A stretch of DNA of 56,146 bases from the NCBI GenBank assembly GCA_023484085.1, contig JAMDAS010000025.1:1-56146 (forward strand), given 5' to 3'. The notes beneath the pieces are model-generated. The model was not told the origin of the DNA, did not search any database, and saw only the letters and a program-made list of their open reading frames with translations. The stretch is from Candidatus Omnitrophota bacterium. GTDB lineage: Bacteria > Ratteibacteria > UBA8468 > B48-G9 > DTJG01. The position numbers and the translations under genes are program-made. Below, piece after piece: positions 23,077 to 41,569 of the stretch (positions are counted from its first letter, which is position 1; every line of letters starts with the position of its first letter).

Positions 23077-23103
23077 TTTTATTGTTTTTTTTCAGAATAG
23101 TTC

Positions 23104-23691: not shown

Positions 23692-23830
23692 ATTCTGTTT
23701 TACCTGTATTGACAGACATTATTTTAATATGTTCCCGCAGAAGTTTGTTCATTGTGTTAATTCGTTCTGAAGGGTTTAATTTTAAAAACTGCTTTACACT
23801 CATTATTTTTTTCTGGATTCTATATTCCAT
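23642..23830 (-). CDS. Small basic protein, putative antitoxin
   Basis: 62 aa, overlapping the start of the nucleotidyltransferase. FLKLNPSERI motif. Confidence 0.55.
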   Translation of the reverse strand: MEYRIQKKIMSVKQFLKLNPSERINTMNKLLREHIKIMSVNTGKTEYEIYQCYLKINRKGNP

Positions 23831-23929
23831 AATTTATTATATCATGAATTATCTTTCACACGTACATAGCGTTTTTTCAGATTTTTGATACAAAAGGTTG
23901 CAAAATATAAGACAATCTATAAATCTATG

Positions 23930-24751
23930 TTATAGGAGGGGGGTTAAGAATTTTTTTGCTTTAAGAATATCTGTTTTTTGCTGTGGTCCTGAAATTTCAC
24001 GTTCAATTGTTAACGCCCCCTTGTAATTAAAATTCTTAAGCTTCTTTATCAGTTCAGAAAAATTCACCCTGCCTTCCCCAACGGGTTTTTCCCTGCCGAT
24101 GTTAACCCCATCTGTAGGATATTCTCCATCCTTTATGTGTACGCCTCTTACGTATTTACCGAGTAAATCAAGAGCATCCACAGGATTTGCCTTGCCATAA
24201 AGCACAAGATTTGCCGGGTCAAGATTAATCCCAACGTTGTTGAGCCCCATCTCCTGAATATCATGGATGGTTCTAAAAAGCGTTGTTGGTGTTTCCTGTC
24301 CGGTTTCAAAATTGAAAAATTGGTTGTTATTTTTTAAATAGCCCACTATGTCGCATAAAACAGGAATTAAACTTCTGTAAAGAAAATTATCCGGGTTTTC
24401 CGGTATAAAACCAACATGTGTTATAACGTCCTGAACGTTTAGGGTTTTTGCAAACCCGGAAGCTTTTTTCAATGTTTCTGCCCTGACGTAACGATATTCC
24501 AGGGGAACGAGTCCAAGAGTCAATGGTCCTTCAAAAAAATTCCATACCGCAGGTCCCGGCCAGCCAGCCCATATTGCCGTTATCTGGACGCCTGATTTTT
24601 CCGCTTTTTCCCTGAGGACAGAGGCATTTTCTTCAGTATATATTTCCGGGTTCCAGCATGAAATCTGGCACGTTTCAAATCCGAGCTCTTTCATCCCGTC
24701 AAAATTTTCCACGTGTTCAAAACTGATTATAACTCCAAGTTTTAATTTCAT
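23930..24751 (-). CDS. Sugar phosphate isomerase/epimerase (xylose isomerase-like TIM barrel)
   Basis: THVGFIP, FETGQE, NLDPANL, VHIKDG and TIEREI. Confidence 0.9.
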   Translation of the reverse strand: MKLKLGVIISFEHVENFDGMKELGFETCQISCWNPEIYTEENASVLREKAEKSGVQITAIWAGWPGPAVWNFFEGPLTLGLVPLEYRYVRAETLKKASGFAKTLNVQDVITHVGFIPENPDNFLYRSLIPVLCDIVGYLKNNNQFFNFETGQETPTTLFRTIHDIQEMGLNNVGINLDPANLVLYGKANPVDALDLLGKYVRGVHIKDGEYPTDGVNIGREKPVGEGRVNFSELIKKLKNFNYKGALTIEREISGPQQKTDILKAKKFLTPLL

Positions 24752-24756
24752 TTATA

Positions 24757-25782
24757 CTATACTATTTTAATCACTTTCCTTTTTTTTATTGAAGTTTTTT
24801 CATAATGGACCAATTTTACTGCTTCAAGAGAGGTTTCCGGCCGGACCTCTTCCACGTTTTTATTTTCTTCTACGCAACCTAAAAAATACTCTATTTCCTT
24901 TTGATAGGCATTTTCAACAGGCATTGAAGGATATAAAGGCTGTTTGTCTTTTTCATATAAACAAAGCGTGGGTTTATTCCGGGAATCGTATAAAATAACA
25001 CCGTTTTCAAACGTTGCTAAAAATCCCATCGTAAATGGAAAATCCCCTTCAGCTATCCATCCTCCCTCTATTGTGCAGACAGGTCCATTTTCATAGAGAT
25101 AATTTGCGACAACGTAATTTATTCCATTGCCTATGGATTTTTTTATTTTACCCCGGGCAAATACAGAGGCAGGTTTTCCCAATAGCCATAGAGCGGTATC
25201 CACGTCATGGATATGGAGGTCAAGAATTGCCTCTCCGCCAAGTTTTGGGTCTGATATCCAACTGTTCCATGCCCATTTGGGAGCAGATGAAAGTCTTGTA
25301 AATACTATGGAAAGAAGATTTCCATATTTTCCTGATTGAATGGCATTTTTCAAAAAAAGATATTCCCCCCAGAACCTCAATACGTGCCCTATCATAAGTT
25401 TCGTACCGTTAGATTTACAGGCATCTATCATTTGTTGAGCCTCTTTCAGATTCCGTGCCATTGGCTTTTCACAGAGAACGTGTTTACCTGATTCTGCCGC
25501 TTTTATCGTATGTTTGCAGTGTAAAAACGTGGGGACACATAAATCCACCATTTGTATTTCAGACTCTTTGAAAATTTCATCTGAAATTGCGGTCGTTTTT
25601 ACGCTGGAAAAATCCATAATGTTCTGTCCAACGTTTATGTTTCCCTGAATATCCTTTCCATTTTTTAATCTTTCAACGTCTCCGTCACATATTGAAAAAA
25701 CTCTAACGTTTGAAAGGTTGTTATAGCACGAATAATGTGTTCTCCCCATAAATCCAAAACCTATTAATCCGACGTTAATCAT
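24757..25782 (-). CDS. Gfo/Idh/MocA oxidoreductase
   Basis: Start MINVGLIGFGFMG after a GGGGGG RBS. GKHVLCEKPM and DLHIHDVD motifs. Confidence 0.92.
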   Translation of the reverse strand: MINVGLIGFGFMGRTHYSCYNNLSNVRVFSICDGDVERLKNGKDIQGNINVGQNIMDFSSVKTTAISDEIFKESEIQMVDLCVPTFLHCKHTIKAAESGKHVLCEKPMARNLKEAQQMIDACKSNGTKLMIGHVLRFWGEYLFLKNAIQSGKYGNLLSIVFTRLSSAPKWAWNSWISDPKLGGEAILDLHIHDVDTALWLLGKPASVFARGKIKKSIGNGINYVVANYLYENGPVCTIEGGWIAEGDFPFTMGFLATFENGVILYDSRNKPTLCLYEKDKQPLYPSMPVENAYQKEIEYFLGCVEENKNVEEVRPETSLEAVKLVHYEKTSIKKRKVIKIV

Positions 25783-25880
25783 TTTCCCCCCTACCAGATA
25801 TTTGATTATTATACCACACAAAATTTTGTCATAAAACAAGAAATTCAGTATGGAAAATACGACAATATATTTGTAAAGTA

Positions 25881-25894
25881 TTTGTAAATACAAA
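25881..25894. promoter_or_regulatory. Candidate GntR/AraR-type operator in the divergent promoter region
   Basis: Palindrome TTTGTA-AA-TACAAA, resembling the AraR box, just upstream of TTGACA (25902-25907). Confidence 0.5.
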
Positions 25895-25938
25895 AAAATA
25901 CTTGACAAATAAAAAATGGTATGATATTTTATTATTAT

Positions 25939-27117
25939 ATGAAACATAAAAAGCAGGAAAATTTCATAGCGCCCTATCTTGAAGTAAAAGAGGACTTGCA
26001 AAAGAAAATAAAAAAGGGAAAAGGTGTATATGCAACTGGTGAAAGGATTCCCTCTGAGATGGAGTTATCACGGCACTATCATGTAAGCAGACCAACACTG
26101 AAGAAGGCTCTTTCCCTTCTTGTATCCGAGGGATACATATTCCAGATTCCGGGCCGCGGAACTTTCATTAATTCCCCGGACAATGAAATCTTTCAGCGGC
26201 AGATTGAATCACGCCGCCAGTTCAAACGGATGAACAAGGGGATTGGGGTTTTGGTTCCATGTATTACTGAATCGCTTTATCCCGGAATTCTGCGCGGTAT
26301 AGAGGATTTCTGCAAGAAAAAAGGTTATCACGTAATCCTCGGGAATTCAGATGCAACATCTGAAAAAGAACAGGAGTATATGATAATGTTCACGGAACGC
26401 GGAGTATCAGGTTTAATCATAGCTGTTTCCTATCAGTCCCATTTAAATCCCTATTATGCCACGTTGAAGAAGTGCAGGATTCCCTTTGTTCTTGTAGACG
26501 TTTCAATTGCCGGGATAGAAGCAGACCTTGTTGCGACCGATAATACAATGGGTGCTTATCTTGGAACAAGACGTCTTATAGAAAAGGGCTGTAAAAACAT
26601 TGCATTCATCTGCGGATGGAAGGAAGTATCAAGTTCTGTGGAAAGATTGGAGGGGTACCAGAAAGCCCTTGCAGAAGCCGGTCTTCCATTTCAAAGACAG
26701 ATTGTAAGACATGGTGAGTTTTCCCGGGAATTTGGCTATAATGCAGCCATGGACGTACTCGCTAAAAATTCCATAGACAGTATATTTTCTGCAAACGAGC
26801 CAATTACGCTTGGTGTATTCAGAGCTGTAGGTGAACTTAGTTCTCAAATTTCTCAAAAAATAAACATAGTGTCTTTTGACGAACCAGACGTTCCTCCATG
26901 GTTAAACAATCCTGTTGTTTTAGTTAGTCAGCCGCGATATGAAATAGGGCAAACTGCTGCGCAACTGCTTTTAGAGAGAATTTCAAAAAAGAATGTTTCA
27001 ATCACAAATTCTTACAAAAGAATTCTTCTTAGTCCGCTGCTACATAACGTAAATACAAAGGAACATAAAGTGGTTTTCTCCTCGCCATTCTTGCGGCAAT
27101 GTTACTACCGGCATTAG
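25939..27117 (+). CDS. GntR-HTH plus LacI-type sugar-binding regulator (AraR-like)
   Basis: IPSEMELSRHYHVSRPTLKKAL..L...G.I...PGRGTF followed by a periplasmic-binding-fold domain (VATDN, QPRYEIGQTAA). The C-terminal tail overlaps the next gene. Confidence 0.92.
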   Translation: MKHKKQENFIAPYLEVKEDLQKKIKKGKGVYATGERIPSEMELSRHYHVSRPTLKKALSLLVSEGYIFQIPGRGTFINSPDNEIFQRQIESRRQFKRMNKGIGVLVPCITESLYPGILRGIEDFCKKKGYHVILGNSDATSEKEQEYMIMFTERGVSGLIIAVSYQSHLNPYYATLKKCRIPFVLVDVSIAGIEADLVATDNTMGAYLGTRRLIEKGCKNIAFICGWKEVSSSVERLEGYQKALAEAGLPFQRQIVRHGEFSREFGYNAAMDVLAKNSIDSIFSANEPITLGVFRAVGELSSQISQKINIVSFDEPDVPPWLNNPVVLVSQPRYEIGQTAAQLLLERISKKNVSITNSYKRILLSPLLHNVNTKEHKVVFSSPFLRQCYYRH

Positions 27118-27740
27118 CAGCTGCAAGGGAAAAGGCAAGACAGAGTGTTTGTCTGAATAATCTGCATCAAATTGGACTTGCTTGCTTAATGTATGCCCAG
27201 GATTACCACACTTTTTATGGAGCAGGGGCTTTCCCCTACTATGGGGCTTATGGTACATGGTCTCCTGTTGCAAATCTTAATCTTTTATATGGTCCATATA
27301 TAAAATCATCTGCTACATTTGTATGTCCGGATGCCGTAATAAAAGGTCTTGACCATGTTGCAACAGGAACATCTCTTACTTCTCTTGGGCCCGGGGAGAC
27401 ATGGCAGGAGATTGGTGGTTGGCCTGACTACGGGGAATATCATGTTTCTTATGCATATTATGGTATACAGTATGGTTCTGCTCTCACAGATGCTGCTAAT
27501 CCTGATTCAGTTTTAGCCGCTGATCAGTCAGCAAAGTATATCTATGGGAAAAATAGTCCGTGGTTTTTTTATTTTGTTGATAACAATGGATATTTTAATA
27601 CTTCCGCTGTTCCAAATCATTCTGGAGGAGCTAATGCCTTATATGTTAGTGGTAACGTAAAATGGGTTCCGAATGGTGACCTGAGAAAAGATATTCAGGA
27701 AACGGATGTAAGTGGATATCATACATTATCCAATCCTTAA
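27099..27740 (+). pseudogene. DUF1559/H-X9-DG prepilin-like protein lacking its leader and methylation motif
   Basis: In frame, [32 protein letters not shown], so [12 protein letters not shown] is missing. C-terminal NHSGGANALYVSG. Confidence 0.75.
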
Positions 27741-27758
27741 AAAGGGGGGGTGAAAAAA

Positions 27759-28637
27759 ATGCGAAATGTAATGCAATGGAATGAAGTCCGCCAGTCCGCC
27801 AATCTTTTTGGAGGACGCCAATCCTTATGGCGGAAAGAAGTGAATAGCAACGGAAGAGCCGCCTTTTCCTTAATAGAGCTCCTGGTTGTCATAGCAATCA
27901 TAGCCATTCTTGCGGCTATGTTGCTGCCGGCACTGGAGGCTGCAAGGCAGAAAGCCAGAGCGGATGTCTGCTTGAATAATCTGAAAGAAATAGGTCTTGC
28001 TTTTTCAATGTATCTGAATGACTGGAATGAACAATATCCGCCTCTTGTGGAAGAAAATGCAGGCTTAGGGCCAAGTTATAAAGAAATAGGTTGGATAGAA
28101 CTCCTTCAGCCCTATCTTCATTTTCAGATTCAATATCTTGCACCAGGTGCCAATGGATTTGGGAGTCCAGGGCAACTTGCTGTTTGCCCGCAACTATTCA
28201 TATGTCCTGCAGTAATGGCAAATTATACTACTGATTGGACAGCCTATTTTGATATCGGTTCTATTTATGGATATTCCGATGCAATAAGTTCGGGTATTGG
28301 CTGGCCTTCTTGGCTCCCTATTAAAGAATCAGTTATAAAAAGTCCTTCAAACCAGGTGGTTGTGGCTGAAGATATATATGGCTGGAGATTTTATTACTGG
28401 AACCAATTTATTGCTGGACATGGACTTGGAATAACTGATGCATATAGTTCCCCACAACAACAACAAACCAGTACAGAAGAAGGTAGTGTATTAATGGCTG
28501 ATGGGCATGTAGAATCCCATCCATATAGCTGGGCCATAGCCACAAAGGGGAATTGGAATGGATATAATTTAAATGCAAATCCAGGTGCTGCATATATGGG
28601 TCCCTGGGATACTTTCTATCATATCCCCGGCACTTGA
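27759..28637 (+). CDS. Prepilin-type N-terminal cleavage/methylation protein, DUF1559/H-X-DG family
   Basis: [34 protein letters not shown] and C-terminal H-X26-DGHVE. SD GGGGGTGA. Confidence 0.9.
27793..27815 (+). repeat. 23-bp REP-like hairpin, copy 1, nested in a related TCCGCCA..TGGCGGA hairpin
   Basis: AGTCCGCCAATCTTTTTGGAGGA is 22/23 identical to the reverse complement of 46393-46415. Confidence 0.7.
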
Positions 28638-28662
28638 TAAAAAAGAGGGTTCATTAAGATGA

Positions 28663-28691
28663 TTTGTAAATACTCAGTGAATATTTACAAA
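28663..28691. repeat. Intergenic palindrome GTAAATACTCA-G-TGAATATTTAC
   Basis: Near-perfect dyad. Half-sites recur at 19478, 19591 and 46371. Confidence 0.6.
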
Positions 28692-28707
28692 ATAGGAGGA
28701 TAGAAGA

Positions 28708-30081
28708 ATGATGAAAAAAAATTTGAATATTGGTATAATTGTGAGCTTTTTGATTTTTATTACTTCAGGGAACGTCTTCGCCCAATTAAACGGACAGTCA
28801 TCTTTAAATGAAAATACAAATTTTGGGAAAGCATATAATCAGTTTATTTCCGCACCTGTAAAAAGTTATGATTTTTCCCCTTGTATATCTTCATTTAACA
28901 CAATTGCCGCTGAAACCAGCAGCAAAAAAACAAAAACGTCTGCGCGGTTTTTTCTTCTACTCTCCTATTTTTGTTCCACAAATTTTGATAAGGCTTATAA
29001 TGAAATAAAAACCATATATACAAGAAAACTTTATCCGGAAAATAAAACAACCACTGTTTTGCTTCCAAAGGTAATGAACGAATATGAAGTAGGTCATTCG
29101 TCATTTCAGAGATTATTAATAAACAATTCATTGATAAAGGTTATTATGCCCGGAGAAAATGTCAGTGATCTTGTCGGGATTGAAAAAACCATAAAAATTT
29201 TTGATACCCAAAAAGAATTATCCCTTATGCAACCCACTACGGTATATAAAAACGCCCGGGAAAAAATAAATAAATTAGAAAAAGAAACAACAACTGATAA
29301 ACAGAAAAAGATAATGGACATGATGAAAAAAAACGTTGATATGATGAAGATGCCCTCTACAAGAAACTTTTACAAGATGACTGATGTGCTCTCCATTCTT
29401 ATAGAAGATAGCAGTTTTAATGGTATGAGAAACTCTATAACAAAGACAATAGGACTTTCCATATGCGCTCAAAATCTGCGACAAATAGGCATAGCATTTC
29501 ATCTATATCTGCTTGACCATAATGACTATTTTCCACCTCTTACCGTGAAGGACCGGGTACCTAATGGTACGCCAGACCAGGCTGGTAAAGGATGGATCCA
29601 ATTATTAGAGCCATATCTTGGTCTGAAAAACGTCATAGTAAAAGCAGGTGGCTGGGATAATGGATATATCCCCTTAGTTCCATCCTTATTTGACTGTCCG
29701 ACAAGACAACATTCCTGGACAATGTATGCAACCGGTGAGTATGGATATAATGATTATGTAAGCAGAGGCGGTCCTACGCCTGGATGGCCATTTTACAAGT
29801 GGTGTAAATTTTCATATGTTCCAAAACCTGATATTCAGGTGGTTGTTGCGGAGTCGTTATATGGCTCTCGTTTGTATGGTAATCATCAATTTGTAGCTCC
29901 GCATGGTCATATTCAAGTTGATGGGAATAGTTCTGTGGATTTGCAAAAAACCAGTACTTCTTTAGGAAACGTTTTATATGCAGATGGACATGTGGAAGCA
30001 CATCCGTTTAGTTGGGCAATAAGTTGGCCATATGGATATTTAAAAGGTGGAAACGACCCCTGGGATACGATGACTAAATAA
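28708..30081 (+). CDS. Sec-secreted protein with unknown N-terminal domain fused to a DUF1559/H-X-DG domain
   Basis: Signal peptide ending VFA. C-terminal CAQNLRQIGIAFHLY...YFPP...H-X26-DGHVE closely parallels 27759-28637. Confidence 0.8.
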   Translation: MMKKNLNIGIIVSFLIFITSGNVFAQLNGQSSLNENTNFGKAYNQFISAPVKSYDFSPCISSFNTIAAETSSKKTKTSARFFLLLSYFCSTNFDKAYNEIKTIYTRKLYPENKTTTVLLPKVMNEYEVGHSSFQRLLINNSLIKVIMPGENVSDLVGIEKTIKIFDTQKELSLMQPTTVYKNAREKINKLEKETTTDKQKKIMDMMKKNVDMMKMPSTRNFYKMTDVLSILIEDSSFNGMRNSITKTIGLSICAQNLRQIGIAFHLYLLDHNDYFPPLTVKDRVPNGTPDQAGKGWIQLLEPYLGLKNVIVKAGGWDNGYIPLVPSLFDCPTRQHSWTMYATGEYGYNDYVSRGGPTPGWPFYKWCKFSYVPKPDIQVVVAESLYGSRLYGNHQFVAPHGHIQVDGNSSVDLQKTSTSLGNVLYADGHVEAHPFSWAISWPYGYLKGGNDPWDTMTK

Positions 30082-30148
30082 TTTTTTTTAAAGAATGTTA
30101 TAACCATTAACAAAATGAATAAACAGAAAATAATAGGGGGAAATATTT

Positions 30149-33100
30149 ATGAAAAAAGAAATTAGAAAAATTTTGGGCTCTATTATGTTTACCGCATCAT
30201 TTACACTGATTTTTTGTTTTTCAGCAAAAGCAGAACATACGCTTCCACAATTATATTATAAATTATCTACAAGTATTGTAACACCTCATATTTCATGGGC
30301 AAATCCTTATTATAAGGGACCATTGCATATACTTGTTATAGCCCCGAGATGGCGGCAGAGAGATACAGTAGAGCTGATGGAACGCCTGGATGCGAAGGTT
30401 ACACCGGTTTTTTGTTTTAATGACAGCAGTCTTTATTTAAATGGATGGGATTGGGGTTTTGAGAAAGCAAAGGGAATCCAGAAACAGGCAGTTGAAAAAT
30501 CCCTGGATGATGCTTTAATAAGAAATTATGACGTAATTATCCTTGCCTATGCACCTATACAAACCTTTCCCAAATCTGCAGTTGAAAGCATTTTAAGAAA
30601 AGTTGAAGCAGGTACAGGACTTGTATACATTTATCCAGGGAACACAATTCCCAATAACCCTTTTGTTAAAGAACTGACACTAACGTCATTATCAGGAGTA
30701 GAGCAATCTGCAGTATCAGGAATTCCTGTTGAATGTTTACAGCTCAGGAATTATACAGGTCCTCCTAAAAGTGAAAAAGAATTGAAAAATTTTCTTTCTT
30801 TTTATAGATATGGAAATGGAAAAGTGGCTATGGTTAATTTAAACAGTACAGGTTTTCTTGCTTATCCTGCAGGTAATGATTTGGACTTTGAAACGTATAC
30901 TGCATACATGATAAACGTAATACTTGGGGTAAGCAAAAAACAAAGTCAGATACAATATACTACTTATCAACCATTTTTAAGTTCAGATGCAGGCAAGCCG
31001 TTCAATTATAAATTATCCCTGGATAATACGGGAAATTCCTTGAGAGCAAATATTACAATATCTGTCCATCCATTTAAGCAATTGTTTGTTCCCAAAGAAC
31101 CGGAAGTAAACCAGGGAATAAATAATGCGTCAGGATATATTGCTTCATACTGGAAAGAAAAGAAAAATATATCTTTACCTGCAGGACAATCTAACGTTTC
31201 TTTTGCAATTCCAGGACTTGCTGCCGGAAATTATTATATTTTTGTACAGGTTTTATCTGGAGGAAAAAAGGTATCATTTTGTATTCAAAAACTTACAGTT
31301 AAATCCGGGATTAAAATAGAAAAAGTTCAGATAACACCTTCAGCCATGGATTTAAATAATTCAAACAGGAATATTAAGGTTGAATTAGATTTAAGTGCTC
31401 CTGCACCATCAAATTCATCTTTATCCGCTGTTTTACTTGATAATTATGACAGGATTCTTGATGCCAAAACTTTTGAAATAAAACAAAATAGTAATAACGA
31501 ACAATTCAATCTTTCAGTTAACCATATTTTTTCAACCCTTGGAAAAGTTAGGGTAATACTTTCTATAAACAAAAAAATAATGTCTGTAAAAACCGGCTAT
31601 TTTACGGTTTATCACAGAAAATGGCCCAATTTTACGTTTTTTGCCTGGGGAGGAGAAACAGGTTCTTATGATTATGATATGATGAGAAAAATTGAAGTTT
31701 CAATGGGAGTAGATGCTTTTAGAGGTGGGGACTCCATAGAAACGCTTAGGATTGCAGATGATAGATGTATTCCTGATATGTATAGACTTCTTGCAGGCGT
31801 AAAAAATGGGAAAGTAGAACCTTCTTATGTTAACCCTGATAATCGCATTGAAAGGGCAAAACAAATTTTTTCTGCTGTTAAAGATACCATGCCATTTGAC
31901 CCGTATGCCTATCTTCAGGGTGATGAGTTTGGTTTTATTAATGGTGGTTTACCTGGTGCATCCAAAGGGAAAAACTCTATAGAAGATTTCAGGAGATACT
32001 TAAAAGCTAAATATAAAACTATTGATAATCTTAATAAACAGTGGGGATTTAATTATGATTCTTTTTATCAGATAGAGCCGGTTACAACAGGAAGTAAGGT
32101 TGATGCCGCCAGGAAAGCCCTTGATTTTTCATATCTTATTGACCAGTGGACGTATAACTGGTATGTCTTTGGAGATTCCGTCAGGTTTTATCATGATGCA
32201 TTAAAGGATATAGACCCTACGGCAAAACTTGGATTATCCACACCTCTATGGAATTATTATTACCGTGCCTATGACTGGCCTGTTCTTATGAAATATATTG
32301 AATTTTTTACACCATATAATGATTTTGGCGGTGATGCCCATTATGACATTGCCCGGTGTTTTGCAAAACCAGGTACAGTATTAAGTCAGCACTATGGTTC
32401 TTACTCTAATGTTTTAAACAATCTTCCTTACTACAAGGTAATGCCCTATGCATTGCTACTTGATGGCTGCCAAAATCTTTTCTGGTATAACTTGGGTTTT
32501 GGTGATGAATCAGGAATTTCACCTTCAATGACCCCATACCCGGGTTTTGAAACGACTTCCCTTGAAGTAAAAAAAATTAAAAGCGGGATTGGAAATCTAT
32601 TTGTTCATTCCAGCAGGATAAAAGGCAGGATTGGCATAGAATACAATGAACCTTCTTTCCTTTTTTCTTTTCTTGTTTCTTCTCCAAACGTTCCATGGAC
32701 GTATAATGAATTGAGGACTTGTCTTTCAAACCTTGGTTATGACTATCAATTTATCTCAGACAGTCAGATTTTAAAAGGAGGGCTTTCATCTTATAAGATT
32801 CTTTTTTTACCTGTTTCTCAATGTATCAGTTCAAGACTGTCAAAAAAATTAAAAGAATTTGTTGAAGGTGGAGGTCTTCTTATTGCAGTCGTAAAACCTG
32901 GTCTTTTTGACGGACATGGAAAATATTATGGAAAATCAAGTCCGAGCAGCAGAATTTTTGGGCTTGAGTGGAAAAATCCTTTACAACAACTTGGGCTTGG
33001 ATGGAAAAAGCCTTTACAACAATCCTCACCTGGAAAAATTCATCAGATAACGGGCAAATATAAAAATGAAAAATTTCAATGGACGTTTAAGTCGGATGAA

Positions 33101-33862
33101 CAGATTTCTGTTGATACATCTGTAATTCTTGATGGTGCAACTCCAATATCAATGTTTAAAGGAGCACCGCTGGTTACGTACAACAATGTTGGAAAGGGGG
33201 TTGCAATTTGTTTAAATTTTATTTCATACGGTCAGAATATTAACGCTAATATTATTTCTGCAATCCTTTCTGCACAGGGTATATATCCGCCTGTTGACAT
33301 TGCACCTGATCCGGCTAAAGGCAGTCCTGGCAAATGGATAAAGAATTTTAGATTTACAAGGTTTTCAGATGGCAGTGCTCTATACTGCGGATTTTCCCGC
33401 CTGGAAGGCAAAAAACCTGTTTCAATTACAATAAAATTTAAAAATAAAGGCTATGTATATGACGTTCTTACAGGTAAATATCTTGGAGAACATAAAACAT
33501 TGAGGACAATAGTTAACCCTTATGATGCAGGAATATATGCAATTTTGCAATATAAAATTACAGGATTATCAGGCAGTCTTGAAACACAAAGTCTGCCCCG
33601 GGGTGAAGAAGTAAAAGGGGACGTCCAGATTAATGTTTCAGGGAAAATTCCAGGTTATCAGGTAATCCATTTAGATGTTATCAGACCCGATGGAAAAGAG
33701 CCGGTGTATTTACGACAAAACCTTGTATCAATAAATGGCGTGCCGGCAAAATTTTCTGTTCCAATGGCTCTTAATGAATTGACAGGGATATGGAAACTGA
33801 AATTTACTGAACCTGTATCTCAAAAATCAACAACTTTAAGTTTCACACTTACTAAAAAATAG
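30149..33862 (+). CDS. Large secreted GH42-like glycoside hydrolase with beta-galactosidase trimerisation domain
   Basis: Signal peptide, QGDE, FRRYLKAKYKTIDNLNKQWG, and trimerisation-like YKILFLP..LKEFVEGGG. Ig-like C-terminus. Confidence 0.7.
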   Translation: MKKEIRKILGSIMFTASFTLIFCFSAKAEHTLPQLYYKLSTSIVTPHISWANPYYKGPLHILVIAPRWRQRDTVELMERLDAKVTPVFCFNDSSLYLNGWDWGFEKAKGIQKQAVEKSLDDALIRNYDVIILAYAPIQTFPKSAVESILRKVEAGTGLVYIYPGNTIPNNPFVKELTLTSLSGVEQSAVSGIPVECLQLRNYTGPPKSEKELKNFLSFYRYGNGKVAMVNLNSTGFLAYPAGNDLDFETYTAYMINVILGVSKKQSQIQYTTYQPFLSSDAGKPFNYKLSLDNTGNSLRANITISVHPFKQLFVPKEPEVNQGINNASGYIASYWKEKKNISLPAGQSNVSFAIPGLAAGNYYIFVQVLSGGKKVSFCIQKLTVKSGIKIEKVQITPSAMDLNNSNRNIKVELDLSAPAPSNSSLSAVLLDNYDRILDAKTFEIKQNSNNEQFNLSVNHIFSTLGKVRVILSINKKIMSVKTGYFTVYHRKWPNFTFFAWGGETGSYDYDMMRKIEVSMGVDAFRGGDSIETLRIADDRCIPDMYRLLAGVKNGKVEPSYVNPDNRIERAKQIFSAVKDTMPFDPYAYLQGDEFGFINGGLPGASKGKNSIEDFRRYLKAKYKTIDNLNKQWGFNYDSFYQIEPVTTGSKVDAARKALDFSYLIDQWTYNWYVFGDSVRFYHDALKDIDPTAKLGLSTPLWNYYYRAYDWPVLMKYIEFFTPYNDFGGDAHYDIARCFAKPGTVLSQHYGSYSNVLNNLPYYKVMPYALLLDGCQNLFWYNLGFGDESGISPSMTPYPGFETTSLEVKKIKSGIGNLFVHSSRIKGRIGIEYNEPSFLFSFLVSSPNVPWTYNELRTCLSNLGYDYQFISDSQILKGGLSSYKILFLPVSQCISSRLSKKLKEFVEGGGLLIAVVKPGLFDGHGKYYGKSSPSSRIFGLEWKNPLQQLGLGWKKPLQQSSPGKIHQITGKYKNEKFQWTFKSDEQISVDTSVILDGATPISMFKGAPLVTYNNVGKGVAICLNFISYGQNINANIISAILSAQGIYPPVDIAPDPAKGSPGKWIKNFRFTRFSDGSALYCGFSRLEGKKPVSITIKFKNKGYVYDVLTGKYLGEHKTLRTIVNPYDAGIYAILQYKITGLSGSLETQSLPRGEEVKGDVQINVSGKIPGYQVIHLDVIRPDGKEPVYLRQNLVSINGVPAKFSVPMALNELTGIWKLKFTEPVSQKSTTLSFTLTKK
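32958..33022 (+). repeat. 33-bp in-frame tandem duplication
   Basis: Encodes GLEWKNPLQQL / GLGWKKPLQQ. Confidence 0.8.
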
Positions 33863-33907
33863 AACTGAAAAAAAGAAATCTTAACAAAATAAACATAGGG
33901 GGGAATT

Positions 33908-36900
33908 ATGCCAAAATTGAAGACGTATTTGTTCCTGTCTTTTTTTATACTTTTGTTCCTGTCTTTTTCCGGTTACAGCCAGCAGACTCACCCATCAAAA
34001 ATAAGTCATGGTACTCCATACTGGTGGAATAGCGGTGCAAAATGGAAAGAACCTCAAATTTTAAGAAAGGCATACTGGATATGGAACCGTAAAGACATGC
34101 TGGCTGATATGGATAAAGGCAACACTTTTGTATTTTCAAAAAAAATAGAAGTTCCATCAGATATTTCTAAAGCCTTTATTCTTATTTCTGCACAGGGTTA
34201 TTATAAATTTTATGTAAATGGTAAAGAGGTGGGGAGTGATACTGACGTAGTAACGCTTGACAGGTATGACGTAAAAAATTTTCTGAAGCATGGGGAAAAC
34301 AGCCTTATGATTGAATCAAAAAGTGATACCTGGTATGCAGGATTGTTCGTTGCAGGAACTGTTTCCCTGAAAAACGGGAAAAAACTGAAAATTCTAAGTA
34401 ACAATTCATGGAATATAGCCCAAAAGGGACAGTTACAAACAAAACCGGCCGCTGAACTCGTTCGCGGGGTTAATGGCGGATTTTGGAATAATGTTGGCAG
34501 AAAAATGGTCATGCCCTCTTTATGGTATAAGTTAAATACAAAACTTAATGTTCCTGGTATCGGGTGGGCAAACCCCTATTATGCAGGAGGAAAAATAAAA
34601 GTATTGGTGATTCAGCCGAGGGCACAACAAAGGGATACAGTGGAATTGGTTGACGATACGAATTTTAACGTATCCACAGTGTTTTCTGATGCAAACCAAT
34701 TTAATGAGCAACATTCAGGTGCGCCATTTTTTGAAGTTATGAAGGGGATGTCTGTCCAAACAATAGAAGCAAACATAAAAAAAGCACTGAGAACAGAACC
34801 GGACGTAATTATTCTCGGTGGATTTGGATATGACACTGACAGGATTTTCAAAACCACACTGGAGGATTTTCTAAAAACATATCTAATTAATGGAGGTGGT
34901 CTGATTTATCTGGAAGGTGCAATTCCTGATAAAACGTTTGAAAAAGAAATCACTGCAAACATTGTTAAACAGATACCGGATTTTTTAAATACAGGTTTTC
35001 CTTATAAAGACCTTCCTGGCTTTAAAAGTTTTCAAAATACGGCAAGCTTGTTTACTTTCGGGAAAGGCCGTATAGTATGCCTGAACAACAACGTTTTTGG
35101 AGGTTATGGTCTATTTGCCAACGTTCCTTCAGATACAAGTGACCTTGATTATCAGTATTACATGTTATCTGCCATAAAAGAAATCTTATGGACGTCTCAC
35201 GATGAACCGGCTACGACTTTTAAAAATTTCCCTGAAGACATAGATTCAAATGGAAAGAACAAACAAATAACGTTCACACTTTTACACGTTGCCAGACCTA
35301 TGACCGTTACCATGGAGGTTATGTCAAAAAAAATACTTTTTAATCTGCCTGAACAGCCAATAACAAACCAGGGGGAGAAAAGAGGGGGATTTTCACTGTT
35401 TCCTGTGTATAAATCTTCCCAAAGAATAAAACAGGGGAAAGAGGTTTTTTGTTCCTTTAACGTTCCTTTTCTTCCTTCCGGGAAATATTATGCAAACATA
35501 ATCTTGTCTGAAAATGGTAAATACGTGAATTGGGCGACGGCGTTTTTATCTGTCAATCATGAGTTTGCCATATCTCAAATTAAACTTTCAAAAAAATATA
35601 TAGACGTTGCAGATGGGAGAAAAGACAGTATAGGGGCTACCGTAACATTTACAAAACCTGCACCAGAAAATACAGTAGTTGAATTTTCACTGATAGATAA
35701 TTATTACAGGATTTTAGCCACAAAAAGAATAATCATTAAACCCGGCTCAACGCATGTGAACGTTTTATTTCCTGTTTCAGGGTTTATCACCACCCTTGGT
35801 AAAATTCATGCGGCTCTTCATGTAAACAATAATCTTGTGTCAGTAAAAACGGCTGATTTTACTGCCATACGCAGAGACTGGAACAGGTTTACGTTTTTTG
35901 CCTGGACAGCAGGAGATTCCGGGCACCAGGGCAATGTTTATCTGAGAGAGCTTGCGAATCTCGGGCTGGATGCTTCCCGTGGTGCAAAAATTAATATCAA
36001 ATGGCTTGAGGCGGCAGATATGGTAGCACTTCCGGCTTATCCCATATTAAGTACCACAGAACCTATGGAAAAGATAAAAAAAGAATATAGCTCGTATGCT
36101 GCTGAAATAATAAACAGTCAATTAAGATTTGACCCTATTGTATTCAATGCAGGAGATGAATTTTATTATCCCGGAGGAGATGAATCCCCTGCAATGGTCA
36201 TGGAATTCAGGAAATACCTTGAAAACAAGTATAAAACTATTCAGACTCTCAATAACGACTGGGGAACTAATTATTCAACCTTTGAGGATATATATCCATT
36301 GACAATGAAGGATACTAAAACTCTTACTCCTGCAGGTGCTTTTGAAAGTGTGGATAACTTCTTAAAAAAAGCCAATTCGGATAAAAACTATAGCCGATAC
36401 CTTGACCAGTGGCTAAATGATTATAACGTATACTTTAATATTTTTAAGTCTGCACGCCAGGCATTAAAAAAAGTATACCCATATGCAAGAGTGGGAGTGG
36501 ACTGTCCTATGTGGCCGGATGCATATTCAGGACATGACTGGTTTAGATTTATGCAGGACTTTGACTATTTTGCGCCATATGGAAGGAATGGTGAAATCAT
36601 TCCTGAAAAAGAAGCGCGTTCCTATAAAAAACAGGGCCAGTTTATCGGACTGGAATATGGCGGGTATAATTATATGGCTTTCAACAGAAAAGAAGAACTC
36701 ACGGATACTGCCTGGCAGCATTGGAGAATCTGGAATGGTTTGTTGAATGGGTTTACGAGTATCTGGTGGTATCAATTAACTCCTCCCGGCAATGAATGTA
36801 ATTTAAGTCCCGGTTTTCTTCCTTATTCTACATTGAAAACGGCAGCAGACGATATATCTAAAATCAGGGATGGCTACTATACCCTTTTTAACGGTAGAAA

Positions 36901-38167
36901 TATAAAAAGAATTTATGGCCCTGTCGCCATATATGATTCCATCAGAAGCCGTCTTGTGGATACATGGCTGCCGTCGGAATTTGGCTCAGGGACTTTAGGT
37001 AATAATATGGACGTTCATGTGTTAATGCATATTCTTCAGCATTTTTGCGGGATGCCGTACACTTTCATATCTTCCCGGCAAATACTTAATGGAGAGTTGG
37101 GTAAATATAAAGTTCTTATGATGCCTGAATCTGTTTCAATAAAAAATAATGTAGCAAAAGAGTTAATCCGTTTTGTAAAAAATGGAGGTATTCTTATTGC
37201 GGATGTAAGACCTGGTATTTTTAACGGTAAAGGTGAATGGAACGATACGATTCCCTCTCTTTTTGGAATATCATACAAAAAAGAATTGAAACGTGAAAAA
37301 GTACAGGGAAACATTAATGGAATATTATTGGAAAAAAAGATAGATATTTCTTCTTTGGAACCTTTTCCTGCAGATGCATCTCTTCAGCTAAATGGAGCAA
37401 AACCCGTTAGTGAAATAAACAATATTCCACTGCTTATAGTAAACCAAATTGGTAAAGGCAAGTCCATATGTTTAAATATCCCGTTTAATTATTATAGAGG
37501 CACTATCATGCCTGATTCTCTATATGCATACTGGGGGGATAAAAAACAGAATATATTAATTGCCTCTATTCTAAATATGTTATTCAGAACGCTCAATATT
37601 CATAAGCCTGTCAGAATAGAAACAGAAAATGGGAAATGGCCCATCAGAATGGCAGTAACATACCTCAAAGATGGACAGGCGCAATATATCGGCATAACCA
37701 GGCAAAGAAACAGCGATTCAGAAAAATCCGTTAAAATAACCATATATCCTCCGGTAGCCGGTTATGTCTATAACGTGCTTACCGGAAAATACATTGGAAA
37801 AAAGTCCTCGTTTACAACCTTAGTTCATCCTGTTGACGTCGGGATTTTTTCAGTGCTTCCCTACAAATTAAAAGGAATAGCGATAAGTTCTTCTGAAAAA
37901 GTAAGAAGAGGCGAAACTCTCAAAGGTGAGATTTTTCTGCAGACTGATGAAAAAACTCCGGCGAACTGCAGACATGTTATTCATCTTTCCGTGATAAGAC
38001 CTGATGGGAAAAACGTTTCTTACCTTTCCACCAATTTACAAACGGATAATGGTAAGGCTGATTTTTCTATTCCTTTTGTTCTTAATGAACCAAAAGGAAA
38101 ATGGAAATTACAGTTTACGGATGTAGCTACCGGGATATTAAAATCATTCATAATGGATGTTTATTAA
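33908..38167 (+). CDS. Large secreted GH42-like paralogue with extra N-terminal beta-sandwich
   Basis: Shares WANPYY, QRDTVEL, FTFFAW, GDEF, FRKYL..KYKTI..LN..WG and HL.VIRPDGK with 30149-33862. The N-terminal domain resembles rhamnosidase/CBM67-like modules (YWIW...ISAQGYYKFYVNG). Confidence 0.7.
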   Translation: MPKLKTYLFLSFFILLFLSFSGYSQQTHPSKISHGTPYWWNSGAKWKEPQILRKAYWIWNRKDMLADMDKGNTFVFSKKIEVPSDISKAFILISAQGYYKFYVNGKEVGSDTDVVTLDRYDVKNFLKHGENSLMIESKSDTWYAGLFVAGTVSLKNGKKLKILSNNSWNIAQKGQLQTKPAAELVRGVNGGFWNNVGRKMVMPSLWYKLNTKLNVPGIGWANPYYAGGKIKVLVIQPRAQQRDTVELVDDTNFNVSTVFSDANQFNEQHSGAPFFEVMKGMSVQTIEANIKKALRTEPDVIILGGFGYDTDRIFKTTLEDFLKTYLINGGGLIYLEGAIPDKTFEKEITANIVKQIPDFLNTGFPYKDLPGFKSFQNTASLFTFGKGRIVCLNNNVFGGYGLFANVPSDTSDLDYQYYMLSAIKEILWTSHDEPATTFKNFPEDIDSNGKNKQITFTLLHVARPMTVTMEVMSKKILFNLPEQPITNQGEKRGGFSLFPVYKSSQRIKQGKEVFCSFNVPFLPSGKYYANIILSENGKYVNWATAFLSVNHEFAISQIKLSKKYIDVADGRKDSIGATVTFTKPAPENTVVEFSLIDNYYRILATKRIIIKPGSTHVNVLFPVSGFITTLGKIHAALHVNNNLVSVKTADFTAIRRDWNRFTFFAWTAGDSGHQGNVYLRELANLGLDASRGAKINIKWLEAADMVALPAYPILSTTEPMEKIKKEYSSYAAEIINSQLRFDPIVFNAGDEFYYPGGDESPAMVMEFRKYLENKYKTIQTLNNDWGTNYSTFEDIYPLTMKDTKTLTPAGAFESVDNFLKKANSDKNYSRYLDQWLNDYNVYFNIFKSARQALKKVYPYARVGVDCPMWPDAYSGHDWFRFMQDFDYFAPYGRNGEIIPEKEARSYKKQGQFIGLEYGGYNYMAFNRKEELTDTAWQHWRIWNGLLNGFTSIWWYQLTPPGNECNLSPGFLPYSTLKTAADDISKIRDGYYTLFNGRNIKRIYGPVAIYDSIRSRLVDTWLPSEFGSGTLGNNMDVHVLMHILQHFCGMPYTFISSRQILNGELGKYKVLMMPESVSIKNNVAKELIRFVKNGGILIADVRPGIFNGKGEWNDTIPSLFGISYKKELKREKVQGNINGILLEKKIDISSLEPFPADASLQLNGAKPVSEINNIPLLIVNQIGKGKSICLNIPFNYYRGTIMPDSLYAYWGDKKQNILIASILNMLFRTLNIHKPVRIETENGKWPIRMAVTYLKDGQAQYIGITRQRNSDSEKSVKITIYPPVAGYVYNVLTGKYIGKKSSFTTLVHPVDVGIFSVLPYKLKGIAISSSEKVRRGETLKGEIFLQTDEKTPANCRHVIHLSVIRPDGKNVSYLSTNLQTDNGKADFSIPFVLNEPKGKWKLQFTDVATGILKSFIMDVY

Positions 38168-38281
38168 TCTAAGAAAGCATGAGACAATATGTCAAGGTAG
38201 GTGCAAGTGTTCCTGTAGGGGTGGAGGGGGTAAGATTACTTATAAAATTGAAACAATGTATTACATACGAGGAGGAATTAA

Positions 38282-39292
38282 ATGGGTGAAAAAATTAGAA
38301 TTGCTGTTATTGGATGTGGAACAGTTGTTGGGTACGGGCATTTGCCAGATATTGAAGCGTTACAGGAAGAAGATGTGGAACTAACAGGTTTTGTCGATAC
38401 AGACCCCGTGCGGCTTGAAGAACTTTCCCGCAGATTTCCGAAGGTACGGCAATATTCGAATTATCAGGAAATGCTTGCCAGTGATACAACAGACATTGTT
38501 GTCATTGCCACCCTCTCATCAACTCATTATCAGATTGCGCTTGATGCCATGAACGCGGGCAAGCACGTTTTGGTGGAAAAACCACCGTCTCTTTCTCCAG
38601 ATGAATGTTTTTTGATGGAAGAGAAAGCGAAGGAAACAAATCTAATATGTGCCGTAGATTTTATTTTACGGTATCAGAAGTCATTTTTGGTGATGCGGGA
38701 AATGCTGGAGGAAGGGGTAATCGGGAAATTGTTTGCCGTGCGGACAGTTAATGATTGGGCCGGAGCCGACCATCGTGGCATGTTTACAGGTCGTCAAAAA
38801 AGAATTATAGAGGGCGGTTCTTCTATGTTTCACGAAGGCATTCACTTTGTGGACATGATACGATGGATAAGTCATTGTGAGTTCAAGGATATTTATGGCG
38901 CCGGCGTTAGTATTCAAGGCAAAGTCAAGGGATACGATAACAATGACCATTGCGTGATGCTCTCGCGTCTTGATAATGGCGTGTTAGTCAACATGGAAGA
39001 AAGCCACAGTTTTGGTTTTTCCTCAAAAGACGAAGTCTCGGATCGCCAGTTTGTATTAATGGGAACAGATGGCGTTATTATCTGGACTGAAGGTAAAGGA
39101 TGCGTGAAAATGTTCGGCAGGAATGAGACGCGTGTTGTAGAAGTGTCGGACAATAAAGATTTTATTTCGTTATATCGTGATTTCCTTTCCAGCGTAAAAA
39201 CAGGAAGGTTCGTCGGAAACATTCCGACTATTCATGACGGGTATGAAGCATTGAAGGTCGTGTGGAAGTTTGACTCTGAAAGAACGTATTGA
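38282..39292 (+). CDS. Gfo/Idh/MocA oxidoreductase
   Basis: IAVIGCG, GKHVLVEKP and GIHFVD. GGAGG RBS. Confidence 0.92.
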   Translation: MGEKIRIAVIGCGTVVGYGHLPDIEALQEEDVELTGFVDTDPVRLEELSRRFPKVRQYSNYQEMLASDTTDIVVIATLSSTHYQIALDAMNAGKHVLVEKPPSLSPDECFLMEEKAKETNLICAVDFILRYQKSFLVMREMLEEGVIGKLFAVRTVNDWAGADHRGMFTGRQKRIIEGGSSMFHEGIHFVDMIRWISHCEFKDIYGAGVSIQGKVKGYDNNDHCVMLSRLDNGVLVNMEESHSFGFSSKDEVSDRQFVLMGTDGVIIWTEGKGCVKMFGRNETRVVEVSDNKDFISLYRDFLSSVKTGRFVGNIPTIHDGYEALKVVWKFDSERTY

Positions 39293-39309
39293 AGGAGGTT
39301 CTCTTGCAT

Positions 39310-39470
39310 TTTACTATTTTTTATCAATTCTCAGATATACTGTTAAATCAATGTTCCCGCAGAAGTTTGTGCATTGTGTTAATTCGTTCTGAAGGGTTTA
39401 ATTTCATTTAAGACGTTTTAATCACTTTCCCCCCTACCTGATATTTGGTTATTATACCACACGAATTTTT
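39310..39470 (-). pseudogene. Collapsed remnant of the 23.1-25.8 kb four-gene arm
   Basis: Colinear blocks: 39316-39351=23136-23171, 39351-39404=23729-23782, 39397-39410=24741-24754, 39416-39430=24765-24779 and 39426-39462=25783-25819. Confidence 0.92.
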
Positions 39471-39557
39471 ATCAGGGTAAATGGAATTTGAACTTTATAA
39501 ATTTATGGTATAATAATTGTAATCTATTAGCCCAACTTCCACATTTTTGAGAAGGAA

Positions 39558-40130
39558 ATGGAGAGAACAGTGATAAAAAATTTACCCGAAGAGTTCAACG
39601 TTCTTAAAAAAATAGAAAATCCTTTTAAAAAACGACTTTATTTTGTTGGGATACTGACAAAATATCTTTCCTATAAAAATATTAAACCCGTAATTGTTGG
39701 TGGACATGCTGTTGAATTCTATACGCTTGGTTCTTATACAACTGGTGACATAGATTTGATTTGTGAAGGATATGACTTTATAAAAGAATTACTTAAAGAA
39801 TGGAAATTCAAGAAACAAGGAAGATTATGGATTTTGCCTGAAGAAGACATAGAAATTGATATTGTAAGTAGCTATTTGAAAGATGATGACCCATCAAAAA
39901 TTTCTGAGGTAACCGTTGAAAACTTAAAAGTTTATATTATAGGTATAGAAGATTTGATTGTGGATAGATTAAATGCTTTTGTGTGGTGGAAATCGGAAGA
40001 AGATAAAAAATGGATAAGAATGATTGTAAAACTGCATTTTAAAGAAATAGACAAAGATTACATGGAAAAAAGAACAAAACAAGAAAAAACCTTTGGAGCA
40101 TGGGAAAAAATAAAAAATGAGAAAATATAA
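39558..40130 (+). CDS. DUF6036-like nucleotidyltransferase
   Basis: IVGGHAVEFYTLGSYTTGDIDL and IEDLIVDRL. Confidence 0.75.
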   Translation: MERTVIKNLPEEFNVLKKIENPFKKRLYFVGILTKYLSYKNIKPVIVGGHAVEFYTLGSYTTGDIDLICEGYDFIKELLKEWKFKKQGRLWILPEEDIEIDIVSSYLKDDDPSKISEVTVENLKVYIIGIEDLIVDRLNAFVWWKSEEDKKWIRMIVKLHFKEIDKDYMEKRTKQEKTFGAWEKIKNEKI

Positions 40131-40335
40131 TTTTGATGAATACTATAAACAAAATTCAGCTAAGTTTGCATTAAAGAGAGCCCAATTTTCATCAGTAAAA
40201 ACTTATAGAAAAAAACCAAGACCTGAAGAAGAATGGGAAGTTTTTTATGTTCTTACAAAAGAAAGAATGAAAAAGTGGATTAAGAAAGGGATGTTTAAAT
40301 CCACCGGAATAAGAAAATATTCCATTTATTTATAA
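40117..40335 (+). CDS. Small basic partner protein of the nucleotidyltransferase
   Basis: 72 aa, overlapping the upstream stop codon. Confidence 0.6.
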   Translation: MRKYNFDEYYKQNSAKFALKRAQFSSVKTYRKKPRPEEEWEVFYVLTKERMKKWIKKGMFKSTGIRKYSIYL

Positions 40336-40412
40336 AATTCACATTTTATTGTCCAAAATTCAAAAACACAATCTGAGCTGTAAATTTCATTATTTAACAA
40401 ACCAAAATAAAT

Positions 40413-40441
40413 TTGACATATCAATATATCATATTTATAAT
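40413..40441 (+). promoter_or_regulatory. Consensus sigma70 promoter for locus B
   Basis: TTGACA, 17-bp spacer, TATAAT. Confidence 0.8.
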
Positions 40442-40489
40442 AAAAACAGGATATAAAAATAAAAAGAATTTTTATCATGAGGAAATAAA

Positions 40490-41569
40490 ATGACGGTTAA
40501 AACGAAAAGATTATCAAAGGAAAATCAGCCGCTTCCATTATGGTGGCAGTTAAAGGAAAAAATAAAAGAGGAAATTGTAAATAATAAATTTCTGCCAGGG
40601 TATGAATTATCCACTGAAATGGAGTTAATGTCAGAATATGAAGTAAGCAGAATAACGGCAGTAAAAGCACTTTCCGAACTTACGTCTGAAGGACTAATAT
40701 ACCGTATCCAGGGTAAGGGGACATTTGTAAAGGACAACAAGCCTATATTTAATAATGAAGAAATTGTTGGTCTGGTTATGCCTACTACAGGACATCTATT
40801 TGACCATCTCTCAAAAAAAATTATACATGGACTTTCTGAACATCACTACTTTTGTATTGTTATTAATTATGCCTGTGAAAACAGGAAAAGTATAAAGAAA
40901 ATAAAGGATTTGATAGATAGACATCCGGCAATTCTCGTTATTCAGGGTATTTCTAAATTCCCATTCTATCTTCTTGACAATTATCCGGGTAAAGTTATTT
41001 TTTTTAATTGTTTTGAAGCAGAAAAAAAATTGGTTAGGGCAAGGTATATCCTGTCTGACTATTTTGAAGGAGGCAGGTTTGTGGCAGAACATTTTCTTTC
41101 TCTTGGTCATAAAAAAATCATTATCTATACCTATCCAATATTCCCTGACCAGAAAAGTCAGATAAATTTAATTGAAGGGGTAAAAAAGACGTTCAGAGAA
41201 AAAAACCTGTCGGAGAAAAATCTTATGATTATTACGGATGAGGACCGGATTTTAAAGGCATTGGAAACAGAAGAAAAACCTATGGCTGTATTTTGTGATG
41301 GAGATTTCAGGGCAAAATTGATTTATGAAACAGCAGAAAAACTAAATTTAAGAATCCCGGGTGACATTTCTGTTGTTGGATATAATAATACGCCGTGGTG
41401 TGAAATATTTCAGCCAAATCTTACGTCAGTATCTATCAGGGAAGAAGAACTTGCAGATTACGTGATAGAAGAGATAACAGACAAAAACAAGAATAAAGAA
41501 ATACTTATTCCACCAAAACTTATTATCAGAGAATCAACAATTGCTGTAGATAAACTACAGATTTATTAA
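40490..41569 (+). CDS. GntR-HTH plus LacI-type sugar-binding regulator
   Basis: TEMELMSEYEVSRITAVKAL..L...GLIYRIQGKGTFV and IPGDISVVGYNN...LTSV. Confidence 0.92.
   Translation: MTVKTKRLSKENQPLPLWWQLKEKIKEEIVNNKFLPGYELSTEMELMSEYEVSRITAVKALSELTSEGLIYRIQGKGTFVKDNKPIFNNEEIVGLVMPTTGHLFDHLSKKIIHGLSEHHYFCIVINYACENRKSIKKIKDLIDRHPAILVIQGISKFPFYLLDNYPGKVIFFNCFEAEKKLVRARYILSDYFEGGRFVAEHFLSLGHKKIIIYTYPIFPDQKSQINLIEGVKKTFREKNLSEKNLMIITDEDRILKALETEEKPMAVFCDGDFRAKLIYETAEKLNLRIPGDISVVGYNNTPWCEIFQPNLTSVSIREEELADYVIEEITDKNKNKEILIPPKLIIRESTIAVDKLQIY

Follow-up and report, generated by a model that had tools for sequence, protein, structure and literature searches.

A 165-nt patchwork, the probable relic of a four-gene operon copy, in an uncultured Omnitrophota genome

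Between an oxidoreductase gene and a nucleotidyltransferase gene of a Candidatus Omnitrophota genome lies a short stretch that repeats, in order, small pieces of an operon elsewhere on the same contig. How did so little of that operon come to lie here, and from which direction did the change proceed? We read positions 39100-39700 and 23000-26000 of the window (the whole 56,146-nt stretch of DNA that was analysed), compared the region with the window by BLASTN at word size 7 and with the whole assembly, and compared the window with itself. Together with global alignment, these comparisons identify 39310-39474 (165 nt) as a colinear, same-strand patchwork of 23120-25831 (2712 nt). The blocks are 89-100% identical to the source and, because their within-window BLASTN E-values are 4.7e-22, 2.2e-15 and 1.0e-13, a chance match is excluded. 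About 94% of the source length is gone, and the remaining 6% or so is about 95% identical to it.

The matching blocks and the intact operon

Read on the minus strand, the relic presents an extended -10, a G-run ribosome-binding site and an oxidoreductase start, then an oxidoreductase stop, spacer and TIM-barrel start, then codons of the 62-aa ORF and finally the last codons of the 195-aa gene (Table 1). Block 1 contains a run of 36/36 identical positions (39316-39351 = 23136-23171), and in a global alignment homology continues leftward as far as 39310 = 23120, beyond the first block of the initial annotation; at this left end, 10 nt (23125-23135) have been lost between AATTTTT repeats. The TTTAATTT of block 3 overlaps block 2 and forms the microhomology of that junction. 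In block 5, 39426-39462 matches 25783-25819 at 35/37 positions, which BLAST widens to 39418-39474 = 25775-25831 (51/57).

Table 1. Positions of the relic, its source, the missing segments and adjoining features
Feature	Position	Strand	Source position	Remarks
Source operon	23120-25831	(-)		Promoter and four genes; intact
Gfo/Idh/MocA oxidoreductase	24757-25791	(-)		Pfam match
Xylose-isomerase-like TIM barrel	23930-24751	(-)		Pfam match
62-aa ORF	23642-23830	(-)		
195-aa nucleotidyltransferase-like protein	23104-23691	(-)		
Second Gfo/Idh/MocA oxidoreductase	38282-39292	(+)		Left neighbour of relic; last gene of locus A right arm; 22% protein identity to the source oxidoreductase
Block 1	39310-39351	(-)	23120-23171	Remnant of final codons of 195-aa gene
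Block 2	39351-39404	(-)	23729-23782	Codons about 17-34 of 62-aa ORF; 53/54 identical
Block 3	39397-39410	(-)	24741-24754	Start codon and initial codons of TIM-barrel gene; 14/14
Ambiguous middle	39411-39430	(-)		Oxidoreductase stop region or first codons of oxidoreductase
Block 5	39426-39474	(-)	25783-25831	Oxidoreductase gene 5' end, G-run RBS, extended -10, remains of -35
Extended -10, TGGTATAAT	39451-39459	(-)		Intact
GGGGGG RBS relic	39429-39434	(-)		C-run on plus strand
19-codon ORF	39348-39407	(-)		TIM-barrel start fused in frame to middle of 62-aa ORF
DUF6036 nucleotidyltransferase	39558-40130	(+)		Right neighbour of relic; own TGGTATAAT at 39506-39514
Missing segment, 558 nt			23172-23729	1 nt common to junction; P for random breakpoints 0.47
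Missing segment, 966 nt			23783-24748	8 nt (TTTAATTT) at junction; P for random breakpoints 3.9e-4
Missing segment, 1008 nt			24780-25787	5 nt exact within 12/13 quasi-repeat; P for random breakpoints 0.010

The middle of the relic, 39405-39430, has no unique parse and may be read as part of four or of five blocks. With five, 39416-39430 is identical to 24765-24779 in the oxidoreductase stop region (block 4, 15/15), and a 10-nt spacer has to have been replaced by 6 other letters. With four, the TIM-barrel start is joined directly to the first codons of the oxidoreductase (from 25771), which costs an additional substitution and an insertion of 2 nt. Alignment scores are equal for the two (272 versus 272), and edit distances are 24 (five blocks) and 21 (four blocks). 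All five blocks of the initial annotation lie where it had placed them and keep the strand and order of the source, and the junction sequences that it had given, TTTAATTT, and TTAATCACTTTCC versus TTAATCATTTTCC, are present. Its five-block structure holds for the positions, but the 6 nt between blocks 3 and 4 (39411-39416) mismatch the source spacer and the four-block parse scores equally.

No further copy of relic or source was found in the 906-kb, 27-contig assembly (62.6% complete), in which the relic is the sole three-block compressed chain among 161 low-copy repeat hits. We rejected the idea that block 5 is a recurrent promoter module; elsewhere it has just one 26-nt match, at 92% identity (contig C18).

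A gene for a CobQ-type amidotransferase follows the 195-aa gene, and a GntR-type regulator (25921-27117) is divergent from the operon. After this regulator come DUF1559/prepilin-like proteins, two very large glycoside-hydrolase-like proteins and the second Gfo/Idh/MocA gene. Beyond the DUF6036 gene on the other side of the relic lie a 72-aa ORF and a second GntR-type regulator. A "toxin" had been counted among the erased genes, but this label for the 195-aa gene is tentative, given that the predicted protein matches AbiEii (PF08843) at 16.4 bits (E = 0.009), below the gathering cut-off of 22.5. It has no NCBIfam match, and distant relatives (28-34% identity) occur in 6 of 51 other genomes of the order, none of them in its own family.

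Several internal repeats were also observed (42911-43016/46432-46537 and 27084-27194/27903-28013/41774-41833, 78-91% identical). They lie at the 5' ends of neighbouring large and DUF1559/prepilin-like genes, and are probably common signal or N-terminal methylation segments.

Junctions, divergence and the direction of change

When the source flanks of the 558-, 966- and 1008-nt losses are joined, the product differs from the relic by 1, 0 and 2 mismatches, respectively. The 966- and 1008-nt junctions and the 10-nt loss each lie at a short direct repeat, one copy of which is kept; the 558-nt junction shares 1 nt. The quasi-repeat of the third junction lies at the start and end of the oxidoreductase gene, in frame, and the outer boundaries of the relic show T-rich matches only, within chance. 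The earlier claim that the junctions fall on shared short sequences therefore applies to the 8-nt and 5-nt junctions but not to the first. Likewise, its count of at least three deletions agrees with the three large losses, which may have been separate events or a single one.

All three large losses are multiples of 3 nt in length, which would occur by chance with a probability of about 1/27, from three events only. We considered a 3n bias in the spacing of microhomologies as the cause of these sizes, and found no support for it: of identical k-mer pairs 300-1500 nt apart in the source, 33-35% are spaced 3n, so that there is no 3n phase. Because the source k-mers have no such bias, the explanation of small 3n deletions in PMC6054270, as set out in the part of that paper on which we draw, is not obviously applicable here. 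We regard the sizes as an unexplained curiosity.

In global alignment, relic and source differ by 7-8 substitutions in 165 nt and by small indels, a divergence of about 4-5%. The substitutions are unevenly placed, with 1 in the 90-95 nt of blocks 1 and 2 and 5 in 44 nt of block 5 (Fisher p = 0.015). Since a single age predicts evenness, this pattern counts against one age for the whole relic, unless the noncoding promoter of the source evolves faster. The 10-nt loss, the altered spacer and the 7-8 substitutions indicate that more than one mutational step has acted; they show only that time passed. The initial annotation had proposed that the copy was erased much faster than point mutations accumulated. 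Loss of 94% of the length at 4-5% divergence fits this proposal, tempered by the 7-8 uneven substitutions in only 165 nt.

The direction of change is indicated by the nearest genome compared, a genus-mate with 80% DNA identity, in which orthologues of the oxidoreductase and TIM-barrel genes are adjacent (80% DNA identity). Because both enzymes match Pfam families and this orthologous adjacent pair exists, we conclude that the long form is ancestral. The opposite order of events, an ancestral relic into which genes were later inserted, was rejected on the ground that the missing segments comprise whole conserved enzyme genes. The direction assumed at the outset, from genes to relic, is borne out: the relic holds only the ends of real genes. 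In the genus-mate, neither the 62-aa/195-aa pair nor the regulator is present, and the flanks differ. As the relic contains pieces of that pair, the copying post-dates the lineage-specific four-gene arrangement, and the divergence of 4-5% between relic and source, compared with 20% to the genus-mate, places the copy well after the split of the two genomes.

We searched more widely for the relic and for intermediate states. Of 40 related genomes of the order, none has a DNA match to the relic; seven matched, only inside the nucleotidyltransferase gene (39573-39885). The genus-mate has no counterpart of the relic site; it encodes four paralogues, 65-77% identical, of the 40490-41569 regulator, and the genes upstream of these are unrelated. 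No orthologue of 38282-39292 was found at E <= 1e-30 in five family genomes, and a metagenome scan with the protein returned three loci, at 25-26% identity only. No intermediate or empty-site allele appeared in the data searched, which comprise the contigs of four runs, 51 genomes from the order and a metagenome scan. These include no close relative, so that the missing intermediates are uninformative.

The seven genomes with matches to 39573-39885 belong to other families within the order; DNA identity is 67-75%, with a short second match at 96%, and no match was found in 14 genomes of the same family. This distribution suggests that the DUF6036 gene moves horizontally.

Explanations for the relic

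We consider it rather probable, from the alignments and junctions, that the stretch is what remains of a recent duplicate within the genome, perhaps from a 16-kb tandem duplication, that collapsed by deletions at short repeats. A second copy of the four-gene operon would have arisen within this genome after the split from the nearest genus-mate, the likeliest route being tandem duplication of the whole 16.2-kb locus 23120-39309. This route puts a second left arm after the last gene of the right arm, in direct orientation, as the relic lies. Short direct repeats would then have allowed RecA-independent deletions, by replication slippage or microhomology end-joining, to remove the redundant copy piece by piece, with losses of 558, 966 and about 1008 nt and a 10-nt slip; the tandem route would add one loss of 13.5 kb. 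Of this history, only the end state is shown. Counter to the preferred reading, the 558-nt junction shares a single nucleotide, which random breakpoints reach 47% of the time; counter to the tandem route, there is no trace of the 13.5 kb of the second copy. The initial annotation had the left arm of locus A recently duplicated in front of locus B. That the stretch derives from the source, at 4-5% divergence, is upheld; the tandem route of the copy is only the likeliest one. We rejected homologous recombination between the two oxidoreductase genes, whose proteins are just 22% identical.

In the main rival reading, no full second copy ever existed. A polymerase repairing a stalled fork, or a break, between 39309 and 39475 could have copied short stretches of the operon 14-16 kb away, with three or four forward jumps at microhomologies (serial replication slippage or MMBIR/FoSTeS). 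Short colinear blocks with microhomology are a described signature of template-switch rearrangements, and the relic has colinear blocks of 14-57 nt with microhomology at two of three internal joints. The absence of 94% of the source at just 4-5% divergence and the lack of intermediates would also fit a single step. So would the middle of the relic, 39411-39430, which mixes letters of both ends of the oxidoreductase gene, as back-and-forth switching could yield. Counter to this, ordinary separate deletions predict the same junction signature, the later 10-nt slip, changed spacer and 7-8 substitutions imply time for several events, and absent intermediates say little without a close relative. 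We judge the one-step patchwork unlikely. We know of no documented natural bacterial case of a patchwork made by several switches in one step; the studies known to us concern mostly humans and other animals. Distinctly doubtful, in our estimate, is the bolder statement that the relic is a natural bacterial multi-template-switch insertion, four or five patches having been copied behind 38282-39292 with 0.5-1 kb skipped between them. If it were true, skips that are all 3n would hint at codon-phased template reading.

A further explanation, which we consider very improbable, is that the relic is a retained functional element, its blocks kept by selection. The promoter would drive an antisense or small RNA, or the 19-codon ORF, acting on the convergent 38282-39292 gene or elsewhere. 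As the initial annotation had it, the minus strand still carries an extended -10 and a GGGGGG ribosome-binding site, both directed at the 3' end of 38282-39292. In favour of function, TGGTATAAT is unchanged amid five surrounding substitutions, and the relic is identical in runs of two studies. In addition, 50 of 144 hits of TGNTATAAT fall in noncoding DNA, which by a crude ORF mask makes up about 10.6% of bases, an enrichment of about 3-fold. Because of this enrichment in the noncoding DNA of the genome, the TGNTATAAT motif is probably a working promoter element. Extended -10 promoters can function without a -35 element, and the surviving one may well be active; the -35-like hexamer of the relic is altered.

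Arguing against a retained function, a consensus scan that found the source promoter detected no minus-strand -35/-10 pair in the relic, and a scan for terminator-like sites found none there. The 149-nt minus-strand RNA predicted from the orphan promoter folds no better than shuffled sequence (z = +0.82; 160 of 200 shuffles fold as well), and no Rfam family was matched (best 13 bits, E = 0.44). Conservation cannot be claimed for a sequence absent from 40 related genomes, and blocks 1 and 2 come from arbitrary points inside coding sequence rather than from regulatory sites. No RNA run contains the stretch; two metatranscriptome runs (study P2) have next to none of its words. The 19-codon ORF exists because the 966-nt loss fuses the TIM-barrel start in frame with the 62-aa ORF, and it is probably meaningless. 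Two 40-codon plus-strand ORFs also cross the relic, and neither they nor the 19-codon ORF have any support. Under the collapsed-duplicate reading, the remaining 165 nt would have no function of their own, and the intact extended -10 may still fire and incidentally produce antisense transcripts reaching into the 3' end of 38282-39292.

Close by, TGGTATAATAA on the minus strand (39449-39459) and again on the plus strand (39506-39516, in the nucleotidyltransferase promoter) form an 11-nt inverted repeat whose halves are 46 nt apart. The two sites make a back-to-back promoter pair.

Last, an assembly artefact, a chimeric path through the repeated words of the source region, is extremely improbable, even for a metagenome-assembled genome of 27 contigs that is 62.6% complete, as words missing from the reads could not occur in the run contigs. 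Four DNA runs from two studies contain the stretch, and their contigs were aligned over 22500-40500. In run X3, which belongs to the second study, a contig of 611 nt equals 39051-39661 with 0 differences and 0 gaps and crosses every junction. It is overlapped by a contig of run X2 (39316-40060) and by contigs of run X4 (39022-39323 and 39367-39592). Contigs of run X1 end at 39351 and begin at 23142; both positions are edges of the exact 36-nt repeat, where a word-graph assembler would be expected to break. No joints and no inserted or omitted letters were found at the relic in the run contigs; three joints occur elsewhere, with sides of just 21-24 nt. The run data are contigs, in which rare alleles would not show. 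For practical purposes an assembly chimera is excluded, in agreement with the initial annotation, which had taken the structure as real.

The runs also differ in depth. In X1, depth per contig is about 28 at 23753-27783, 49-79 at 27811-39351 and about 14 to the right of the relic; possible causes are co-occurring strains and a different copy number of the glycoside-hydrolase part of the locus. Depth in X3 is flat, at about 5-6. X4, whose cover is low and patchy, has none over much of the source region.

Known deletion processes and other repeats in the assembly

Deletion between short repeats is classically known from lacI of E. coli, and gene remnants are familiar from reduced genomes, as in the spacers of Rickettsia and Buchnera. 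The relic resembles such cases in that its losses of 0.5-1 kb end in 5-8-nt direct or quasi-repeats of which one copy is kept, with a 10-nt slip between AATTTTT repeats. It differs in that one junction has 1 nt and in that the events are deduced from a single end state rather than observed.

Deletions at short or quasi-repeats are established as "deletogenic replication slippage" in Ca. Sodalis pierantonius (PMC4948707); the repeats in the relic are A+T-rich, whereas the part of that account used here stresses G+C-rich ones. Microhomology-flanked deletions in pseudogenes (Danneels et al. 2018, PMC6054270) and the rapid removal of young pseudogenes in bacteria (Kuo & Ochman 2010, PMC2916853) are likewise established. 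As in the portions of these two papers that we cite, a redundant copy has here been cut to spacer fragments beside an intact working copy, with deletion exceeding insertion and running fast relative to substitution. Unlike those cases, as far as the same portions describe them, the copy was a whole duplicated four-gene operon with its promoter, and it was lost in a handful of large steps, not by many small deletions. Differently again from what is excerpted from PMC6054270, the 3n sizes are not accounted for by k-mer spacing in the source.

Tandem duplications that are later remodelled or collapse, as in Salmonella and E. coli, offer a second comparison. The relic is in direct orientation and follows immediately upon the final gene of the same locus, where the join of a duplication would lie. 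In contrast to such duplications, the other 13.5 kb have no second copy and the join point has no provable signature. A literature search on the remodelling of duplications returned nothing directly useful. In MMBIR/FoSTeS, as in the relic, several short pieces copied from a single nearby template are linked through microhomologies. This process is described mainly for eukaryotes and for stress-induced amplification in E. coli, and a single event here would be indistinguishable from serial deletions.

Taken with these parallels, the relic is a fresh example of an established deletion process, an ordinary genomic fossil, and neither a new mechanism nor a new system. It is notable for its cleanness and its compression, about 94% of the source having been lost at about 95% identity. 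It thereby offers a clean, datable snapshot of how redundant DNA is disposed of in a compact genome (estimated 1.5-2 Mb), and lets deletion be set against substitution in concrete figures for a lineage without cultured members. Relics of this type can retain orphan promoters aimed into neighbouring genes. They can also mislead annotation, as would the two 40-codon plus-strand ORFs and the one 19-codon minus-strand ORF in this one.

A second compressed pair was observed in the assembly, between C2:1-322, at a contig end, and C6:3320-4983. Its two blocks (132 nt at 92% and 155 nt at 89%) are 35 nt apart on C2 and 1376 nt apart on C6, where a 349-aa gene lies between them beside ParA-like and integrase-like genes (named by their first residues only). 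Either C2 has suffered a deletion or C6 has gained an insertion.

In the genome-wide hunt for further compressed relics, a multi-copy motif of 28-37 nt on C6 proved a false lead. It occurs at seven irregularly spaced places in C6:9037-15653, on both strands, and once at the start of C25 (C25:68-104), and could be a series of binding sites, or iterons belonging to a mobile element. When the assembly is compared with itself, the dominant matches come from a high-copy repeat family of about 100-180 nt with 88-99% identity (for example C4:3696-3871, C9:1-126, C11:17160-17260 and C20:10697-10850), which may be a small mobile repeat or the conserved 5' ends of DUF1559 genes.
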